Virus record (IMG/VR): IMGVR_UViG_3300028569_000019
Coordinates: 1-64,000 of that record
Length of the DNA stretch: 64,000 bases
Origin: a virus
Strand: one strand, 5' to 3'
The notes under the pieces: generated by a model
The model's database searches: none
What the model was told of the DNA's origin: nothing
What the model saw: the letters and a program-made list of their open reading frames with translations, nothing else
Shown: one piece after another, positions 3,708-19,572 of the stretch
How the letters are laid out: the number at the start of each line of letters is the position of its first letter
How positions within the stretch are numbered: the first letter of the stretch is position 1
Translations under genes and position numbers: made by a program

Positions 3708-3890
3708 AATTATGTCACTAAGCGAATCGCAGTTAGCAATATTGAGTTGGATATTTACGACAGGATGTTCTGTATTATTGATTGCATCTACTGCAATAAT
3801 ATTGTATATGATGTATTTGTTTGTGAAGTTGGTTAAAAATTTCTCAAAAAAATATTGACGAATATATAGTTGTGTGATATATATTATTAA

Positions 3891-3968
3891 ATGAGAGTCA
3901 AGTATACACATATTAAACGCTGGGATACATTTACAAATTGTGAATGTCTGGCGGTTGATATTGTATAG
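3891..3968 (+). CDS. Putative attenuator leader peptide 1 (MRVKYTHIKRWDTFTNCECLAVDIV*), not in ORF track
   Basis: ATG 3891 lies 13 nt after a TATATATT promoter-like motif; TAG stop at 3966-3968; last codons overlap the antiterminator strand; codons match tRNA array 1. Confidence 0.7.
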   Translation: MRVKYTHIKRWDTFTNCECLAVDIV

Positions 3969-4035
3969 TATGTGAACACCTTCTTGTACAAAAAATCAAC
4001 CGCCAATCCAAAAAGATGGCGGTTTTTTGTTTTTT
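3949..4035 (+). terminator. Attenuator 1: overlapping antiterminator and intrinsic terminator
   Basis: TGGCGGTTGAT (3949-3959) pairs perfectly with ATCAACCGCCA (3995-4005); alternatively AACCGCCA (3998-4005) pairs with TGGCGGTT (4017-4024), followed by a U-tract. Confidence 0.8.
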
Positions 4036-4045
4036 CGAAAAGGTG

Positions 4046-4073
4046 TTGACAAGTTGAAAAACTCATGTAAGAT
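4046..4073 (+). promoter_or_regulatory. Sigma70-type promoter
   Basis: TTGACA-16 nt-TAAGAT. Confidence 0.55.
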
Positions 4074-4134
4074 AAAAGGACATTAAACGAAACTAGTAAG
4101 TGAAATCGAAGTAACTGAAAGTTTAAAATGATGA

Positions 4135-4162
4135 TTGACAATTTAAAATAGTCTGTTAGACT
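4135..4162 (+). promoter_or_regulatory. Sigma70-type promoter of tRNA array 1
   Basis: TTGACA-16 nt-TAGACT with extended -10 TG. Confidence 0.6.
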
Positions 4163-4173
4163 TAATGAAGATT

Positions 4174-4293
4174 GTGGAAGGCTTGAAACTCCATCTGTTG
4201 AGCCACCGCCAGTAACCAAAGGTAAAGACTGGGAAAATCAATTGATTGGTCCGTGGGTGTTATGCTGGAATACAGAACCCATAGGGCGATAAT
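4174..4293 (+). ncRNA. Conserved structured leader RNA, copy 1
   Basis: Shares TTGAAACTCYATCTGWTG and TTGATYGGTC..TGGGTGTTATGCTGRAATACAGAACCCAT..GGCGATAAT with 14042-14137; compensatory base changes between the copies. Confidence 0.65.
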
Positions 4294-4342: not shown

Positions 4343-4417
4343 GCCTCCTAAGCATTGGTAGCGATGCAGAGGTTTTGTAAACCCCAGAGCTCGGCGCAAG
4401 CCCGGGAGGAGGCTCCA
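4343..4417 (+). tRNA. tRNA-Thr(UGU)
   Basis: GCCTCCT/AGGAGGC acceptor, loop TT-TGT-AA, encoded CCA; non-canonical T-loop CGCAAGC. Confidence 0.85.
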
Positions 4418-4429
4418 ATTTATAGTAAT

Positions 4430-4505
4430 GGTGATATTGGTGTAACAGTTAGCATTTGAGTTTGTGAAACTCACGGAACGAGGGCAGCACTCGTATATCA
4501 CCCCA
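4430..4505 (+). tRNA. tRNA-His(GUG)
   Basis: G-1:C73 extended acceptor GGTGATAT/ATATCACC, anticodon arm TGAGT-TTGTGAA-ACTCA, CCA. Confidence 0.9.
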
Positions 4506-4515
4506 AATTTATAAT

Positions 4516-4594
4516 GGCCTCATCGTCTACGAATGTAATAGGATTCTGGATTCTCAATCCGGAGAACTCGGTTTGACTCCGAGTGAGGCTACCA
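4516..4594 (+). tRNA. tRNA-Glu(CUC)
   Basis: GGCCTCA/TGAGGCT acceptor, CTGGA-TTCTCAA-TCCGG, CCA. Confidence 0.85.
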
Positions 4595-4601
4595 ATTTAA
4601 T

Positions 4602-4676
4602 TACCCTATCGTCTAGTAACTAGGACTAGTGTCCCGGACGACACTAACCTTGGTTTGAATCCAAGTGGGGTAACCA
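4602..4676 (+). tRNA. Atypical tRNA-like gene, anticodon undetermined (8-nt loop CCCGGACG)
   Basis: Intact acceptor TACCCTA/TGGGGTA, Glu-type D arm, T arm and CCA, but the anticodon arm AGTGT-CCCGGACG-ACACT lacks U33. Confidence 0.6.
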
Positions 4677-4682
4677 ATTTAT

Positions 4683-4760
4683 GCTGGTGTAGCTCAAATG
4701 GATTAGAGCGTTTGATTACGAATCAAAAGGTTGTAGGTTCAACTCCTACCATCAGCACCA
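4683..4760 (+). tRNA. tRNA-Arg(ACG)
   Basis: Canonical cloverleaf, TTTGA-TTACGAA-TCAAA, CCA. Confidence 0.95.
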
Positions 4761-4767
4761 TTTTAAT

Positions 4768-4842
4768 GGCCTATTCGACAACCAGCTAAGTCACTTGGCT
4801 TTCATCCAAGAGTAGCCGGGGCAGCACCGGCATAGGCTACCA
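4768..4842 (+). tRNA. tRNA-Glu(UUC)
   Basis: GGCCTAT/ATAGGCT acceptor, CTTGG-CTTTCAT-CCAAG, T-loop GGCAGCA, CCA. Confidence 0.88.
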
Positions 4843-4844
4843 TT

Positions 4845-4931
4845 TTTGACGGCACTGTAGGGTGCAGTCGTAAGCAAGATCACCCCTAGCATAATCTGAA
4901 ACAGTGAAGCGTTAAGATCTTGACCGTCAAA
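4845..4931 (+). ncRNA. Unassigned structured RNA within tRNA array 1
   Basis: Closing stem TTTGACGG/CCGTCAAA, nested CACTGT/ACAGTG and GGGTG/CACCC stems. Confidence 0.5.
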
Positions 4932-4939
4932 TATTTCAT

Positions 4940-5017
4940 ATCCGCCAATGTTCCAAGGATTAGGCGACAGGCTCTCCAAAAGCCCGTGGGTAAGTTCGAT
5001 TCTTACGGTGGATGCCA
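4940..5017 (+). tRNA. tRNA-Trp(CCA)
   Basis: ATCCGCC/GGTGGAT acceptor, GGCT-CTCCAAA-AGCC, GTAAG-TTCGATT-CTTAC, G73, CCA. Confidence 0.85.
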
Positions 5018-5025
5018 TTTTTTCA

Positions 5026-5204
5026 AATACATTAGGTGAAGGCAACGAACGTAGTTTAATTGGTAAAACAACCGCACGAATAAGCGGAAGTCATTCAGTT
5101 CGAATCTGAATCACTAGTTGAAGTAGTAAGTAATGTATTGACACTGATAGACATTGAATGTTATAATCTGACGAGGTTATAATTAGTAAGTGGAACGTTC
5201 GTTG
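5026..5204 (+). ncRNA. tRNA-like RNA with ~84-nt insertion between T arm and 3' acceptor strand
   Basis: CAACGAACG (5043-5051) pairs with CGTTCGTTG (5196-5204); D arm GTTT-AATTGGTA-AAAC; T arm ATTCAG-TTCGAAT-CTGAAT. Confidence 0.55.
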
Positions 5205-5228
5205 AAATCCAGTAAACATTTTTTTAAC

Positions 5229-5300
5229 TCCCCTGTAGTGTCAAAGTAGCACGGCTGGTTGTTACCCAGTTAGGTGAAGGTGCGAGTCCTTCTGGGGGAG
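5229..5300 (+). tRNA. tRNA-Asn(GUU), no encoded CCA
   Basis: TCCCCTG/TGGGGGA acceptor, GCTGG-TTGTTAC-CCAGT, G73. Confidence 0.8.
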
Positions 5301-5351
5301 CTTTCGTCAAAATAAAATACATTTTGACAGTTCACATCCATATTTATTATT

Positions 5352-6047
5352 ATGGATGTGAACCAAGATTTCAAATATACAATATATAAAACTACCAATA
5401 AAATTAACAACAAAGTTTATATTGGAATGCATAAAACAAAAAATCCATATGACAGTTATATGGGTTCTGGTAAATTATTCAAAAGAGCAGTAGGAAAATA
5501 TGGTGAAGAAAACTTTGTAAAAGAAGTTTTATTTATATTTGATACCGCTGAAGAAATGTTTGCGAAAGAAAAAGAAATAGTAAATCAATTATTTATTGAA
5601 TCAGATAATACATACAATATTATGGAAGGTGGATGTGGAGGTTATTCATATATAAATGAATCTGGTAAAAATTTGTATGGTCAGAACGGTGATATTAATC
5701 ACGGTGGAAAAAATTTATTAACTGGTAATAAAATAAAAGAATTTTTAATTGAAAAAGGATTATTTGAAGAATGGAAACAGAAAGTATCAACATCTTTAAA
5801 AGAAAAATGGAAACGAGATGGTTTTCATTGGACTGGTAGAAAACATAAAGATGAATCGAAAAAGAAAATGAGCGCAGATAGAAAAGGCAAATATACAGGT
5901 ATAGATAATTCAAATTATGGAAATTGTTGGGTTTATTCAGATTTAGAATCTAAGAATAAAACCATTAAAAAACAAGAATTAAATGATTACATAAATAATG
6001 GATGGAAACCGGGTATAAAAATGAAATATCATAAGAAAATTTCATAA
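5352..6047 (+). CDS. GIY-YIG homing endonuclease (T4 Seg-like) with NUMOD3-like motif
   Basis: YTIYKTTNKINNKVYIGMH, YMGSG, YNIMEGG; C-terminal WTGRKHKDESKKKMS. Confidence 0.9.
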   Translation: MDVNQDFKYTIYKTTNKINNKVYIGMHKTKNPYDSYMGSGKLFKRAVGKYGEENFVKEVLFIFDTAEEMFAKEKEIVNQLFIESDNTYNIMEGGCGGYSYINESGKNLYGQNGDINHGGKNLLTGNKIKEFLIEKGLFEEWKQKVSTSLKEKWKRDGFHWTGRKHKDESKKKMSADRKGKYTGIDNSNYGNCWVYSDLESKNKTIKKQELNDYINNGWKPGIKMKYHKKIS

Positions 6048-6065
6048 TAATTTTTAAATTTCAAT

Positions 6066-6188
6066 TCCAGAGTAGCTCAATGGTAGAGCATGCGGCTGTG
6101 GGCCATAAAGTATTATTTAATAGAGAGTGCAAATCTCATAAGGCCAAAGTTAACCGCAGGGTTGGGGGTTCGAAACCCTCCTCTGGAG
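6066..6188 (+). tRNA. tRNA-Asn(GUU) interrupted by a 51-nt insertion in the anticodon loop
   Basis: TCCAGAG/CTCTGGA acceptor, canonical D and T arms, TGCGG/CCGCA anticodon stem; removing 6098-6148 restores CT-GTT-AA. Confidence 0.8.
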
Positions 6189-6203
6189 CTCTTTCAATAG
6201 TTT

Positions 6204-6320
6204 TATATGATGTATGATATATGCTGATTAAGGGTTAGGCAGTTGATCAAATTGCAATAGTATGAACATAAAGTGCCTTAAGAAATTTAAATAATTTCAT
6301 TGTTCATTATACATTATATA
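6204..6320 (+). ncRNA. Unassigned structured RNA with possible pseudoknot
   Basis: 15-bp closing stem 6204-6218/6306-6320, inner hairpins, TTAAGG/CCTTAA cross-pairing. Confidence 0.5.
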
Positions 6321-6329
6321 ATTTTTCAA

Positions 6330-6430
6330 TAGGGAGTAGTAATTGATAAAAAACAAGCTAGATAGATGAGCAAGTTCGAAATTGCTTGAACGGTGTGAAA
6401 TCCTAGTGTAAGTTTAGATGAACTGCCCTA
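6330..6430 (+). ncRNA. Unassigned structured RNA
   Basis: Closing stem TAGGGAGT/ACTGCCCTA; inner CTAG/CTAG and AGCAA-GTTCGAAA-TTGCT hairpin. Confidence 0.4.
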
Positions 6431-6439
6431 CTAATTTTC

Positions 6440-6526
6440 GGGAGTATCGCATAGCAGCAATTGCTGGACACTGTAAATGTCCCGGCCTAACGGCCTTCGT
6501 AGGTGCAAGTCCTACTGCTCCCACCA
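6440..6526 (+). tRNA. tRNA-Tyr(GUA) copy 1
   Basis: GGACA-CTGTAAA-TGTCC, long variable arm, CCA. Confidence 0.9.
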
Positions 6527-6531
6527 TTTTT

Positions 6532-6617
6532 GGGGTATTATACTGATAAAGACGCAGAACGGTCTGTAAAACCGTTGCCTTCGGGCTGGGTAGGAGCATT
6601 ACCTACATACCCCACCA
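6532..6617 (+). tRNA. tRNA-Tyr(GUA) copy 2
   Basis: ACGGT-CTGTAAA-ACCGT, variable arm GCC-TTCG-GGC, CCA. Confidence 0.85.
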
Positions 6618-6624
6618 TTTCAAT

Positions 6625-6698
6625 TGACCGTTAATTCAATAGCAGAATAGACGACTGATAATCGTCCTACGCCGGAGCGTAACCGGCACGGTCAACCA
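6625..6698 (+). tRNA. tRNA-Ile(GAU)
   Basis: TGACCGT/ACGGTCA acceptor, GACGA-CTGATAA-TCGTC, CCA. Confidence 0.9.
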
Positions 6699-6856: not shown

Positions 6857-6909
6857 AATATTTAAAAATAAATGAAACTATTTGCTCTATACAACATATT
6901 TATTTAGAT

Positions 6910-7545
6910 ATGATGAAATGTAAATGGTGTTTGATTAATTTTGATTTAAATGATAAACCTAAAGGATGGGCAGCTGCACACACAAGATGGTGTGATCACA
7001 ATCCAAAAAAACAAGAGTATATAGATAAACTAAAATCTGCAAATAGAACACATTTAATGTGTGAATCAAAAAAAATAAGCGGAAAGACAAATCAATTCAC
7101 AAAAGCAAAAGTAAACGGATTTACTTTAACTAGTAAATTAAAAGGTAGAAAAAATATTGCTCTAAAAGGAAAGAAACATTCAATTCAAAGTAAGCTGAAT
7201 ATGAGTAAAGGATCTTTAAAATCTACTCATAGAAGATTACGCAGAGGAATTATTCAATATAAAGGAATAACACTCGATTCTAGTTGGGAATTAGAATTAG
7301 CTAAAAGATTGGATGATTTAAACATTAAATGGAATAGACCTGATCCATTAAAATGGAAAGATTCCAATGGTTTAGAACACAATTATTTTCCTGATTTCTA
7401 TTTAATAGACTATAATCTATATTTAGATCCAAAAAATCCAGGAGCATATAAAGTTCAAAAATCAAAAATTGATATACTGCTTAATACTTACAATAATATT
7501 TTAATTTTAAAAACTTTAGAAGAATGCAAAGGATTTAAAATTTGA
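6910..7545 (+). CDS. Putative homing endonuclease, NUMOD3 + PD-(D/E)XK domain
   Basis: KGKKHSIQSKLNMS; DSSWE...YFPDFYL...YLDPK. Confidence 0.75.
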   Translation: MMKCKWCLINFDLNDKPKGWAAAHTRWCDHNPKKQEYIDKLKSANRTHLMCESKKISGKTNQFTKAKVNGFTLTSKLKGRKNIALKGKKHSIQSKLNMSKGSLKSTHRRLRRGIIQYKGITLDSSWELELAKRLDDLNIKWNRPDPLKWKDSNGLEHNYFPDFYLIDYNLYLDPKNPGAYKVQKSKIDILLNTYNNILILKTLEECKGFKI

Positions 7546-8368: not shown

Positions 8369-8444
8369 GCCTTCATAGTATAAAAGTATTACACATCATT
8401 GGTAATGATGAAACGTAGGGGGGCGGTACCTACTGGAGGCTCCA
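8369..8444 (+). tRNA. tRNA-Thr(GGU)
   Basis: GCCTTCA/TGGAGGC acceptor, CATCA-TTGGTAA-TGATG, CCA; T-loop enlarged by a G run. Confidence 0.8.
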
Positions 8445-9480: not shown

Positions 9481-9534
9481 AAATTTGTTAAATTAATTCA
9501 CATATTATACAATACTCCATATATTTATGTATAT

Positions 9535-10308
9535 ATGAATTCTATTGAATTAATTTGTAAAAATTGTAATATTAAATTTGATAAAAATATCTATTATTAT
9601 AGACAATCTCTTAAGAGAGGATATACCAACTTTTTTTGTTCAATTAAATGTTCTTCTATCTTTGCTGGCGGAATTCTTAAAGAAAAAGGTAAACAATTAA
9701 AAATTAATTGTGAAAGTTCATATTTAAAAAATCCAAAAAATTGCCCTCAGTGTCATAAATTAATTTCTTATAAAAAAAGATACAATGAGTATTGTTCAAA
9801 AAAATGTTCTGCGATTTATACACAAAAAGATAAAGGACATTGTGAATGGAGCATTGAAGATAGAGAGAAAATTTCTTTACGAGTTAAAGATTATCATAAT
9901 AAAAATCCAAAGACTAAAAAGTTAAAAATAAAAATATGTAAAAATTGTAATAATGAAATAAAAGACAAACACAAAAGAATATGCAATAGTTGTTCAGAAA
10001 AATATTATAAATTTTACAGACCATTATGTGAGTTTGATTTTATTTTAGAAAATTACCCTGATAAATTTGATTTATCTTTAATTAAAAAATACGGAAAATA
10101 TAGTCCTAAAAATAAAGGTAATAATTTAACAGGAATAAGTAGAGATCATCTTTATTCTGTAAAAGACGGATTTAAAAATAAAGTAAGTCCTGATATCATT
10201 AGACATCCAGCAAATTGTATGTTAGTAAAACATAAAGAAAATCAAAAAAAATATAACAAAAGTTCTATTTCATTAGAAGAATTAAAAAAAAGAATATTAG
10301 AATGGTAA
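9535..10308 (+). CDS. Zinc-finger HNH-type homing endonuclease
   Basis: Repeated CxxC / FCSxxC motifs; C-terminal SRDHLYSV...HPANC...HKEN. Confidence 0.75.
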   Translation: MNSIELICKNCNIKFDKNIYYYRQSLKRGYTNFFCSIKCSSIFAGGILKEKGKQLKINCESSYLKNPKNCPQCHKLISYKKRYNEYCSKKCSAIYTQKDKGHCEWSIEDREKISLRVKDYHNKNPKTKKLKIKICKNCNNEIKDKHKRICNSCSEKYYKFYRPLCEFDFILENYPDKFDLSLIKKYGKYSPKNKGNNLTGISRDHLYSVKDGFKNKVSPDIIRHPANCMLVKHKENQKKYNKSSISLEELKKRILEW

Positions 10309-10347
10309 TCCAACACGGGACTCCATTTTTTATATATTTATTACTAT

Positions 10348-10818
10348 ATGATATTATTAAAAGATTTATTGATAGAATCACCGTCAGTAATAACAGTATA
10401 TAGAGGTGTTAATCCTGCGTATGGTGATGTTGGTTTGGGTATCAACAGCACCAAGATAGGAGATAAATTAGTTGCAACGTTGGGGCCTAATCATACTGAT
10501 AATTTAGATGTTGCTAAACGATTTGGCAAACAGATAATAACTACTAAATTAAATGGGCCTGGATTGGAATTGTCTCATTATAATGACATAGTTAATTTAT
10601 ATAAGCAGTATGAAAATATGTTACCGCCTGGTCTTGCAAAACAAATCAAATATAGTAGTGGACAAGAACAATTGGAGTTAATACAATTAGCAGGTAAAGA
10701 GTTACGTAGTATATTGAGTAAGAAATATGGATATATTAAGAGTCCACTTGCGGTAAGTGATGCTAATTATTTAAGTCAAAAAGGATTAACAGGAGATTTG
10801 TATATACCGTTGAGATAA
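10348..10818 (+). CDS. Putative ART-fold protein, paralog of 1531..1998
   Basis: VYRGVNPAYGDVGLGINSTKIGDKLVATLGPNHTDN identical to the paralog. Confidence 0.5.
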   Translation: MILLKDLLIESPSVITVYRGVNPAYGDVGLGINSTKIGDKLVATLGPNHTDNLDVAKRFGKQIITTKLNGPGLELSHYNDIVNLYKQYENMLPPGLAKQIKYSSGQEQLELIQLAGKELRSILSKKYGYIKSPLAVSDANYLSQKGLTGDLYIPLR

Positions 10819-12020: not shown

Positions 12021-12731
12021 ATGAAGAAAGTATTAGTATTAGTGTCATTGTTGACCGCTCTAGCTGTATCTGCTGGAGATAATTCAAACCTCTCAGTAGA
12101 AGCTGGGTACAACAACCAATACATCGTTAATGGTGTAGCTCGTTCCGAGGGAACAGCGTTTGTTGGTGTAGGTGCTGTAAAGAGTCTAAAGTATGCAGAT
12201 GTATACTTGGGTGGCACTCTTTTGGCCAATGGCGACCTTGATCAGTCACACTGGACATTGGGTACGGGTAAGGAAGTTAGTGTATGGAAGGATGTATTTT
12301 CCGCACGTGCTGATGCTACTGTAACTCGTCACCAAGCTGGTAATTTTGGTATTCCAAACAGTACTGAGTTTGGTGTCAAGTTGGCTCTACCAAACAAGTT
12401 GGCAACTCCTTATGTACGTGGATCATTTGACATTGATCTAGATCAAAAGGGTGCATTTGTTGGTTTGGAACGTGCTCAAAAGTTGCCATTTGGATTTGTA
12501 ATCACACCTGCTGTTGAATATGGTAAGGTATTTGGTGCATCCAGTGATTACACTGCTGTAAATGCCAAGGCATCATTGACTCGTCCATTCGAAACTTCAT
12601 TTGGTGTATTGACTCCATTTGCTACTGTTGGATGGTATGATAATAATTTCAAGGTTGGCAATTATAATTGGGCAACCCGTGAATTTAGTGGAGATGTAGT
12701 ATATTCTGGTGGTTTGAGATTGACCTTCTAA
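12021..12731 (+). CDS. Outer-membrane beta-barrel protein (porin-like)
   Basis: Signal peptide MKKVLVLVSLLTALAVSA, amphipathic strands, terminal GLRLTF Bam signal, AAGGA SD. Confidence 0.8.
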   Translation: MKKVLVLVSLLTALAVSAGDNSNLSVEAGYNNQYIVNGVARSEGTAFVGVGAVKSLKYADVYLGGTLLANGDLDQSHWTLGTGKEVSVWKDVFSARADATVTRHQAGNFGIPNSTEFGVKLALPNKLATPYVRGSFDIDLDQKGAFVGLERAQKLPFGFVITPAVEYGKVFGASSDYTAVNAKASLTRPFETSFGVLTPFATVGWYDNNFKVGNYNWATREFSGDVVYSGGLRLTF

Positions 12732-12752
12732 TCTAGACTACAATAGTGTATT

Positions 12753-12787
12753 AAAACCCGCTTAGAAATAAGCGGGTTTTTTATTTT
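12753..12787 (+). terminator. Intrinsic terminator
   Basis: AAAACCCGC/GCGGGTTTT hairpin plus U-tract. Confidence 0.85.
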
Positions 12788-13872: not shown

Positions 13873-13926
13873 ATGAATTTAATTTCACAACCTAGTCAAG
13901 CCAGTCAACTCCCATCAGGAAGTTGA
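13873..13926 (+). CDS. Putative attenuator leader peptide 2 (MNLISQPSQASQLPSGS*), not in ORF track
   Basis: ATG 13873 follows a TATATATT motif; TGA at 13924-13926 lies just before the antiterminator strand; codons match tRNA array 2. Confidence 0.7.
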   Translation: MNLISQPSQASQLPSGS

Positions 13927-13928
13927 GT

Positions 13929-13993
13929 ACGAGGTTGTTTGCTAAAAAGATCCAACCCGTCACTCTTAAAAAGAATGATGGGTTTTTGATTTT
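13929..13993 (+). terminator. Attenuator 2: overlapping antiterminator and intrinsic terminator
   Basis: ACG(A)GGTTG (13929-13937) pairs with CAACCCGT (13953-13960); alternatively AACCCGTCA (13954-13962) pairs with TGATGGGTT (13976-13984), followed by a U-tract. Confidence 0.72.
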
Positions 13994-14041: not shown

Positions 14042-14137
14042 GGGGTTGAAACTCTATCTGATGTCCCCAACATAAGTTAAAACATTTGATCGGTCACTGG
14101 GTGTTATGCTGAAATACAGAACCCATCTGGCGATAAT
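14042..14137 (+). ncRNA. Conserved structured leader RNA, copy 2
   Basis: Homologous to 4174-4293; same position between the promoter and the first tRNA. Confidence 0.65.
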
Positions 14138-14166: not shown

Positions 14167-14240
14167 GGGGGTTTAGTTTAAAAGCAAAACAGTAGTTTTA
14201 CACACTTCAAACGGTGGAGCATTACCATCAACCCCTACCA
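14167..14240 (+). tRNA. tRNA-Val(UAC)
   Basis: GGGGGTT/AACCCCT acceptor, loop TT-TAC-AC, CCA. Confidence 0.85.
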
Positions 14241-15351: not shown

Positions 15352-15444
15352 GGATGATAGGCAGATATAAGCTGGCTGCACTAGTCTTGAAAACTAGGTC
15401 CGTCTAAAAAACGGAGGTCCGGGCAGTACGGACATCATCCGCCA
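15352..15444 (+). tRNA. tRNA-Ser(UGA)
   Basis: CTAGT-CTTGAAA-ACTAG, long variable arm, G73, CCA. Confidence 0.88.
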
Positions 15445-15703: not shown

Positions 15704-15778
15704 TGGGGATTGATTGTAATAGTAGCAAATCAGACTTTGAATCTGAGAGAATCGGAGCGTAACCGGTATCCCCTGCCA
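15704..15778 (+). tRNA. tRNA-Gln(UUG)
   Basis: TCAGA-CTTTGAA-TCTGA, U1 mismatch, G73, CCA. Confidence 0.85.
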
Positions 15779-19186: not shown

Positions 19187-19572
19187 GGGGATGTGTAGAT
19201 TCGACATAGATAAATATCTATTGTTAGGCACGTAGAGGATAATAGTTGGCCTCTTTAAAAGTTCTATTGAAAATTAACTGCTGAAGATAACGTAGTTAGC
19301 TATGACTTCTCTTATGATGACGTTGTAGCCCTTGCAGCCTAAGTTGTTGCACATTCAATACAATGAAGTCTGATAGTTGTGTTGAGTGTAAATTATTGGA
19401 CTGGACCAAATATTTGATTTGCGTAAATGGTCGAGATATTAGTAAATCTTAAGGGTAATATTTTTAGATATTTTTCATTATTACTTCCCAACAATTTAAA
19501 ATATATAAACGTGTAGTCTGGCAGTAATAATTTTTTATGGACGCGGGGTGCGACTCCCCGCCATCTCCACCA
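19187..19572 (+). ncRNA. ssrA: tmRNA; tag peptide AEDNVVSYDFSYDDVVALAA* (19280-19342)
   Basis: GGGGATG/CATCTCC-ACCA acceptor with G3:U, GATTCGAC 5' motif, T arm, resume codon after TAACT, tag ending in ALAA. Confidence 0.93.

Follow-up and report, generated by a model that had tools for sequence, protein, structure and literature searches.

A conserved four-segment module, probably a leader-peptide attenuator, whose leader matches the tRNA set of the phage array that follows it

We found that a tRNA array of an uncultured giant phage is preceded by a real, conserved four-segment leader-peptide attenuator, and that the leader lists the tRNA set of the array lying downstream of it. This type of mechanism is already known; what appears to be new is its target, tRNA genes. 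The anatomy of the module, its conservation, the covariation of its helices, the open frame of its leader, the match in composition between leader and array and an in silico switch were all obtained in this analysis, whereas we infer leader translation, the transcription start site, and readthrough in vivo together with its size relative to the downstream promoters. We consider it probable that the module works as a ribosome-mediated transcription attenuator of the trp/his/ilv type ahead of the phage tRNA array. An earlier note on this DNA had arrived at the attenuator interpretation, and our results supported it, with those of its suggested checks that could be run all coming out on its side; the note had nevertheless left unweighed the conserved promoters that lie between the terminator and the array, to which we return below.

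The 64-kb window (the whole stretch of DNA that was analysed) is the start of a 96,779-base IMG/VR virus contig. CheckV completeness of the contig is 29%, which makes it a piece of a phage of ~300 kb, and a complete relative (G001) has 295,831 bases. The window encodes a GP88-family protein, a carbamoyltransferase, a peptidase S74 domain and a tmRNA. Megablast and blastn searches against 50,697 deposited phage genomes gave no DNA-level match, so no cultured relative or host is known. Relatives were collected from IMG/VR, using as queries the leader motifs and a conserved element found ahead of the array, which yielded ~20 contigs with leader 1 and ~35 with leader 2, the leader of a second module described below. 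The leader-1 alignment consists of 16 distinct variants drawn from those ~20 contigs. A related-locus search with the upstream carbamoyltransferase returned no match, and of the 90 extra loci retrieved with a 16-base pattern of the element, most were chance matches that had no tRNAs.

The leader-1 region has the classical four-segment arrangement, with pairings 1:2, 2:3 and 3:4 (Table 1). All the helices proposed in the earlier note were recovered in the sequence: the antiterminator strand TGGCGGTTGAT (3949-3959) can pair with 3995-4005 over 11 bp without a mismatch, and the pairing is extended by TTGTA (3961-3965) with TACAA (3987-3991); the terminator arm AACCGCCA (3998-4005) pairs with TGGCGGTT (4017-4024) and is followed by the T-run TTTTGTTTTTT; and a hairpin forms inside the leader between 3927-3935 and 3939-3947. 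By a rough estimate, ~0.003 perfect inverted repeats of 11 bp would be expected by chance per 150-nt stretch. The antiterminator makes use of the 5' arm of the terminator and thereby excludes it, with 11 bp here and only ~6 bp of terminator-arm overlap in relatives. Its first strand is formed by the last six codons of leader 1, the 1:2 helix lies within the ORF, and the stop codon is located where a ribosome terminating on it would mask segment 2. The predicted fold of the region has an energy of -43.2 kcal/mol (z = -4.6), and 0 of 200 shuffled sequences folded as well.

Table 1. Positions in the window of the two leader modules, the tRNA arrays and associated features.
Feature	Position	Strand	Details
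Leader promoter	3855-3885	+	-35 TTGACG 3855-3860, spacer 17-19 nt, -10 within TATATATT 3878-3885
Leader-1 ORF, 25 codons + TAG	3891-3968	+	ATG 3891, TAG 3966-3968; encodes MRVKYTHIKRWDTFTNCECLAVDIV
Segment 1 (anti-antiterminator strand)	3903-3923	+	partner is segment 2; in 5' half of ORF
Apical hairpin in ORF, possible pause hairpin	3927-3947	+	ACATTTACA / TGTGAATGT, 3927-3935 with 3939-3947
Segment 2	3948-3967	+	spans last six codons; includes 11-nt antiterminator strand 3949-3959
Segment 3	3987-4005	+	partner is segment 2 (antiterminator) or segment 4 (terminator 5' arm 3998-4005)
Segment 4 and T-run	4017-4035	+	terminator 3' arm 4017-4024
Two sigma-70-type array promoters	4046-4162 (4046-4073, 4135-4162)	+	3' of terminator; conserved in all relatives
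Conserved element, 5' end of array transcript	4174-4293	+	
tRNA array 1	4343-6698	+	ARAGORN and Rfam; members in text
tRNAs found in mitochondrial mode	4343-4505, 4767-4841, 6534-6604, 14167-14240, 15352-15444, 15704-15778		
ATATTTAT motif copies, examples	6894-6912, 9519-9537, 10332-10350		
tRNA Thr-GGU, further copy	8369-8444		
Second module, ahead of array 2	13873-13987	+	17-codon leader 13873-13926, encodes MNLISQPSQASQLPSGS
Segments of second module	1 at 13888-13895, 2 at 13929-13937, 3 at 13953-13962, 4 at 13976-13984	+	
Conserved element, copy before array 2	14042-14137		

Both the antiterminator and the terminator pairs covary in relatives, in favour of the attenuator reading. Across the aligned variants, the terminated fold had 89% of its cells paired and nine pairs changed on both sides; these values were matched by 0 of 500 shuffles, and controls in which the pairing was slid reached 30-51%. 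Taken separately, helix 2, which joins segment 1 with segment 2, was paired in 84% of cells with four pairs changed on both sides, and terminator helix 5 was paired in 100% with three such pairs, while one pair of the apical hairpin is A-U in eight sequences and C-G in seven. The 9-bp core of the antiterminator, which in relatives is formed by TGATATTGT and ACAATATCA, is paired in nearly every sequence. One pair between segments 3 and 2 is C-G in this contig, U.G in L014 and U-A in L022 and L025, and along this series segment 4 compensates in parallel. Segment 2 of L097 has an A-to-G change that is answered by U-to-C changes in segment 1 and in segment 3, a dual compensation that is the prediction of alternating partners for segment 2. 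The G+C extension of the antiterminator that competes with the terminator arm shifts register among variants, which is a point against the reading, and for this reason its alignment score is poor.

We then considered the reading frame. The 25-codon ORF had been reported with a full codon list, and start, stop and every codon were exactly as listed. Frame 1 is open over 24-28 codons in 16 of the 16 aligned variants, and frames 2 and 3 hold between zero and six stops. Frame-breaking mutations were looked for in these variants and none was present, as indels in leader 1 either measure 3 or 6 nt (L022, the L005 group, L044 and L097) or, in L014, form a compensated +1/-1 pair. In a cut-off copy of leader 1 (L021), a 1-nt insertion shifts the stop four codons upstream, into segment 2, so that the C-terminal residues are of no importance as peptide. 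Variable sites are distributed over codon positions as 7/3/6, which is neutral for third-position bias and, as a point against the reading, lacks the purifying-selection signature of a protein. Conservation extends over the ORF and over segments 3 and 4, while the spacer past the stop codon is highly variable.

Upstream of the ORF, the TATATATT motif and a TTGAyr -35 hexamer keep the same distance from the ATG in most relatives. The ATG starts 5 nt past the end of the promoter and has no Shine-Dalgarno sequence, and given this short gap the leader mRNA is probably leaderless. Leaderless mRNAs seem to be a habit of this phage, since no Shine-Dalgarno sequence precedes 62 of the 76 long ORFs of the contig, and since a motif, ATATTTAT, stands just before gene starts. 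This motif occurs 39 times in the contig, in 16 cases 4-7 nt ahead of the ATG of a long ORF, and is probably a phage promoter yielding leaderless mRNAs. The idea that the leader promoter is itself of the ATATTTAT type was dropped, because its motif differs and a -35 hexamer is present.

The strong structure (z = -4.6), the absence of a Shine-Dalgarno sequence and several synonymous-looking changes that double as compensatory base-pair changes would also fit a structured non-coding RNA switch, that is, a terminator controlled by a protein, a tRNA or a ligand, with an incidental ORF. We consider this quite improbable. The frame has stayed open in all aligned variants despite their indels, the composition match described below has a P of 1e-4 to 1e-5, and a missing Shine-Dalgarno sequence is normal in this phage. 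In addition, a search of 3850-4040 against Rfam at E up to 1 returned no family, T-box and leader families included. Weak Rfam matches to Leu and Trp leaders at 12650-12785 fell on an ordinary post-gene terminator and were far below the gathering score.

If the attenuator reading is correct, the leader should be related to the array that it precedes. In this contig, array 1 consists of tRNAs Thr-UGU, His, Glu-CUC, a tRNA with an 8-nt anticodon loop, Arg-ACG, Glu-UUC, Trp, Asn, an intron-bearing Asn, Tyr and Ile-GAU. Ten matches between leader codons and tRNAs of the contig had been claimed, and ARAGORN and Rfam confirmed eight of them (Thr-UGU, His-GUG, Arg-ACG, Glu-UUC, Trp, Asn, Tyr and Ile-GAU). 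The other two did not stand: the gene at 4516-4594 described as Arg UCU-like has the anticodon loop UUCUCAA, and hence CUC (Glu), and tRNA-Cys is represented in the contig only by a 41-nt remnant (10288-10325). The term "exact" for the codon-anticodon matches was also too strong. They are cognate, with the NNT codons of leader 1 (CAT, AAT, TAT, GAT, TTT, TGT and ATT) read by GNN anticodons through wobble.

The match is clearer at the level of the family. The array-1 tRNAs of relatives serve T, H, R, E, W, N, Y, F, K, D, I and C, with both ACG and UCU anticodons for R and both CUU and UUU for K; in some relatives Val-UAC, Val-GAC, Met or Gln-CUG is found in addition. The tRNAs that the earlier note predicted to have been lost from this array, or to be encoded elsewhere in the genome, were indeed found in the orthologous array of relatives, namely Lys (CUU and UUU), Asp and Phe, as well as Val-GAC in L028, and the Cys and Arg-UCU tRNAs are likewise there. 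Codons 2-19 of leader 1 include 12 of the 12 array-1 amino acids (P ~1.6e-5 for random 18-mers of proteome composition). The only outsider in this stretch is Val, for which array 1 has a tRNA in some relatives. Leader 1 is alone among the 746 small ORFs of the contig in having all twelve amino acids; in shuffles preserving nucleotide composition the same test gave P = 4e-4.

Changes among relatives point in the same direction, with exceptions. In L044, Tyr was lost at codon 5 and gained at codon 14 and Asp has moved, with 12 of 12 amino acids retained, and the leader of L097 also samples 12 of 12. In the L007/L023/L026 lineage the single Cys codon has changed from TGT to CGT, and the complete array (L033, L032) is without tRNA-Cys, which is present beside the sister leaders that have TGT (the L005 contig and L028). 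The leader of L119 has no Arg or Glu codons and those tRNAs are absent from the part of the array seen; against the match, it samples K, D and F, whose tRNAs are also absent from that part. Similarly counting against it, the array of this contig is without Lys, Asp, Phe and Arg-UCU tRNAs and has only the Cys remnant, yet its leader retains the codons. As the array has lost tRNAs that are still coded in the leader, the match is to the ancestral or family array and is not perfect for every single genome. Matching of synonymous codons to individual anticodons was also tried, but since every synonymous codon of most families is read by the array tRNAs, it could not discriminate.

Several features of the tRNA genes deserve a description of their own. 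Between the remaining array-1 tRNAs of this contig there are ORFs. The tRNA with an 8-nt anticodon loop (4602-4676) is conserved (L005:2645-2720, L007:1847-1922); its loop reads ...TT CTCT GA in relatives, and this contig has CC CGGA CG instead. The ARAGORN call is tRNA-?(ctct), and the tRNA is possibly four-base-decoding or otherwise unusual. Many array tRNAs were found only in the mitochondrial mode of ARAGORN and have a non-canonical T-arm, GGnGCAnnACC instead of GGTTCGAAT, an oddity that recurs in His, Glu, Tyr, Phe, Ile and other tRNAs of relatives. The intron-bearing tRNA-Asn(GTT) at 6066-6189 was called in the intron mode of ARAGORN with a 51-nt insert in its anticodon loop, and it matches the Rfam tRNA model with 52.5 bits over 123 nt.

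A second module of the same kind lies ahead of array 2, its leader ORF flanked by the TATATATT motif before it and a terminator after it. Segment 1 of this module lies in codons 6-8 (CAACCTAG) and mimics segment 3 (CAACCCGT); its segment 2 lies 2 nt past the stop codon, as it does in trp. In relatives, array 2 carries tRNAs for V, P, L, S (UGA and GCU), G, Q and A, and 14 of the 16 residues of leader 2 belong to this set, a value reached by 0 of ~23,000 shuffles. Independently diverged versions of leader 2 are similarly rich in array-2 residues, with 20/23 in L021, 21/23 in L052, 14/17 in L110 and 14/16 in L050, and each of the four contains all seven array-2 amino acids. A Fisher test of leader against set gave p = 5.7e-5. 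Small ORFs are abundant in AT-rich intergenic DNA (746 in the contig), and a chance ORF together with a chance inverted repeat beside an ordinary terminator might be imagined. With the first module conserved in ~20 contigs, its covariation and the composition statistics, coincidence is very unlikely indeed.

Other observations were made around array 2 and in relatives. In L018 (8930-9192) and also in L017, the last 12 codons of leader 2 form the in-frame C-terminus of a 66-codon ORF, whose stop and terminator are those of leader 2. A tmRNA is located just past array 2 (19187-19572; Rfam 101.6 bits), and the tag peptide of relatives ends in ...ALAA. The complete relative G001 has a third tRNA cluster (275800-281500; L130), comprising Arg-UCU, Lys-UUU, Glu, three Met, Ile, Leu-CAA and Leu-UAA, with a plain promoter and no leader or attenuator.

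To evaluate the switch in silico, the ribosome was modelled as a 30-nt mask in footprint folding, a check that had been suggested earlier and that gave the predicted behaviour. For leader 1, P(terminator) was 0.91 without ribosome, fell to 0.18 or less with the A site at codons 3-15, and was again 0.91 from codon 16 to the stop. Before segment 4 is made, the probability that segment 3 is sequestered stayed at 0.98 up to codon 15, fell to 0.75 at codon 16 and 0.36 at codon 17, and did not exceed 0.11 from codon 18 onwards. A similar drop near the end of the ORF was seen in nearly all variants of both modules. The equilibrium switch was weak, with P(terminator) of 0.6-0.9, in L024, L025, L027, L028, L097, L116 and about half of the leader-2 variants, so that in these relatives the effect would have to be kinetic.

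The interval between the attenuator and the genes it would regulate is not free of promoters. Sigma-70-type promoters intervene, and in every variant one or two strong, conserved ones separate the terminator from the array. Having its own promoters after the terminator, array 1 can receive additional transcription through the attenuator but cannot be gated by it. Tandem promoters under different regulation are known from the rRNA operons of E. coli. Such promoters in every variant, the plain promoter without leader of the third G001 cluster, and the weak equilibrium switch of some relatives speak for a different explanation, namely that the leader is an independent small transcription unit (a gene for a small peptide or a small RNA) whose terminator mainly insulates the array promoters from transcription coming from upstream, with non-regulatory readthrough. 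This seems unlikely to us, as it leaves unexplained the correspondence between the amino-acid set of the leader and the array behind it, which holds for both paralogous modules and for diverged sequences, the covariation of segment 2 with segment 1 as well as with segment 3, and the fact that the peptide has drifted in sequence but not in composition.

Past both terminators the order is the same: conserved sigma-70-type promoters, a conserved element of ~100 nt, and tRNAs. The two copies of the element are 86% identical over 59 nt, and it occurs in dozens of IMG/VR contigs; it matched no Rfam family, and its fold compared with shuffles gave a z near 0. Metatranscriptomes (freshwater, estuary and river) were examined as assembled contigs, in which starts, ends, strand, level and readthrough are invisible and DNA carry-over is possible. 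Contigs of this kind cover the element and the tRNAs, and one low-depth contig, which may be DNA carry-over, covers 3789-3967; in a relative, one contig whose start and strand are unreadable runs 242 nt upstream of the element. Two further regions within array 1 stood out. In one riverine metatranscriptome, RNA contigs over 5044-5212 had a depth of 270-530 vs 5-25 on neighbouring tRNAs; within this region, a partial tRNA-like sequence lies at 5052-5110 and a perfect TTGACA/TATAAT promoter at 5138-5167. The 92 nt between tRNA-Glu and tRNA-Trp (4846-4937) have an 8-bp inverted repeat, TTGACGG / CCGTCAA, at their ends and are replaced by ATAGT in RNA contigs from two runs, which is probably an indel between strains.

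Under the attenuator reading, the following sequence of events is proposed. The sigma-70-like leader promoter would start a probably leaderless mRNA at or beside the ATG, and its 25 codons would sample the amino acids served by the tRNAs of the downstream array. If a ribosome reached about codon 17-18, or the stop, before segment 4 was synthesised, segment 2 would be covered, segment 3 would pair with segment 4, and transcription would stop at ~4030. Slow decoding of any sampled codon would make the ribosome lag over segment 1, leaving segments 2 and 3 to pair and the polymerase to cross the array promoters into the tRNA genes. The net effect would be a feedback supplement on top of a basal, promoter-driven tRNA supply, and slow reading of the leader codons by ribosomes probably increases the tRNA output of the phage. 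More tentatively, though we regard it as quite possible, the leader might be a timer that sums decoding times with one codon per tRNA species of the array. It could then serve as a feedback homeostat for the phage tRNA supply. Output would go up while host tRNAs are being broken down in the course of takeover or cleaved by anticodon-nuclease defences, and would go down once phage tRNAs accumulate; the proteinogenic amino acids would be split between two sensors.

Leader-peptide attenuation is the textbook way in which bacteria couple amino-acid biosynthesis to the supply of charged tRNA. Among the enterobacterial examples are trpL, hisL, pheL and leuL, and multivalent leaders exist in which thr responds to Thr and Ile and ilvGMEDA to Ile, Leu and Val. 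The phage module shares with them a short ORF with regulatory codons, four segments pairing as 1:2, 2:3 or 3:4, an intrinsic terminator, and a stop codon positioned so that a terminating ribosome masks segment 2. It differs in that it targets tRNAs, whereas theirs are biosynthetic enzymes, and in being phage-encoded, with a probably leaderless mRNA, promoters between attenuator and genes, and no Rfam leader match. Enterobacterial leaders contain runs of one to three amino acids, whereas the phage leaders sample twelve (or seven) amino acids one to three times each; sampling per amino acid is therefore far below that of the his or phe leaders, which counts against the attenuator reading. A gene of the translation machinery is the target in pheM, the leader-peptide attenuator of the aminoacyl-tRNA synthetase operon pheST, which senses one amino acid. 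T-box riboswitches bind uncharged tRNA directly, without a ribosome, by means of a specifier loop and a T-box sequence. In both of these, as would be the case in the phage module, the supply of cognate tRNA controls a gene of the translation machinery through the choice between terminator and antiterminator; unlike T-boxes, the phage module has no Rfam T-box match.

In our literature search we found no report of a leader-peptide attenuator acting on tRNA genes. The nearest published regulated tRNA array is the trn operon of Anabaena sp. PCC 7120 (PMC8421152, PMC10272220), a long array under the repressor TrcR. The binding sites of TrcR are direct repeats that overlie the -10 box and the transcription start, and the 2021 paper on the operon makes no mention of an attenuator, leader peptide or terminator. 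The two cases are alike in that the array is accessory and that trn expression rises when translation is impaired, but control of trn is by a repressor at its promoter.

If our interpretation is true, phage tRNA arrays would be under feedback from decoding speed, a single short ORF would be able to sample a whole tRNA roster, and leaderless mRNAs would be usable as attenuator leaders. It would also become possible to predict the members of a phage tRNA array from sequence alone, even those that a given genome has lost, as the earlier note did correctly here. The finding bears on the question of why phages carry tRNAs, whether for codon usage, host shut-off or the evasion of defence.
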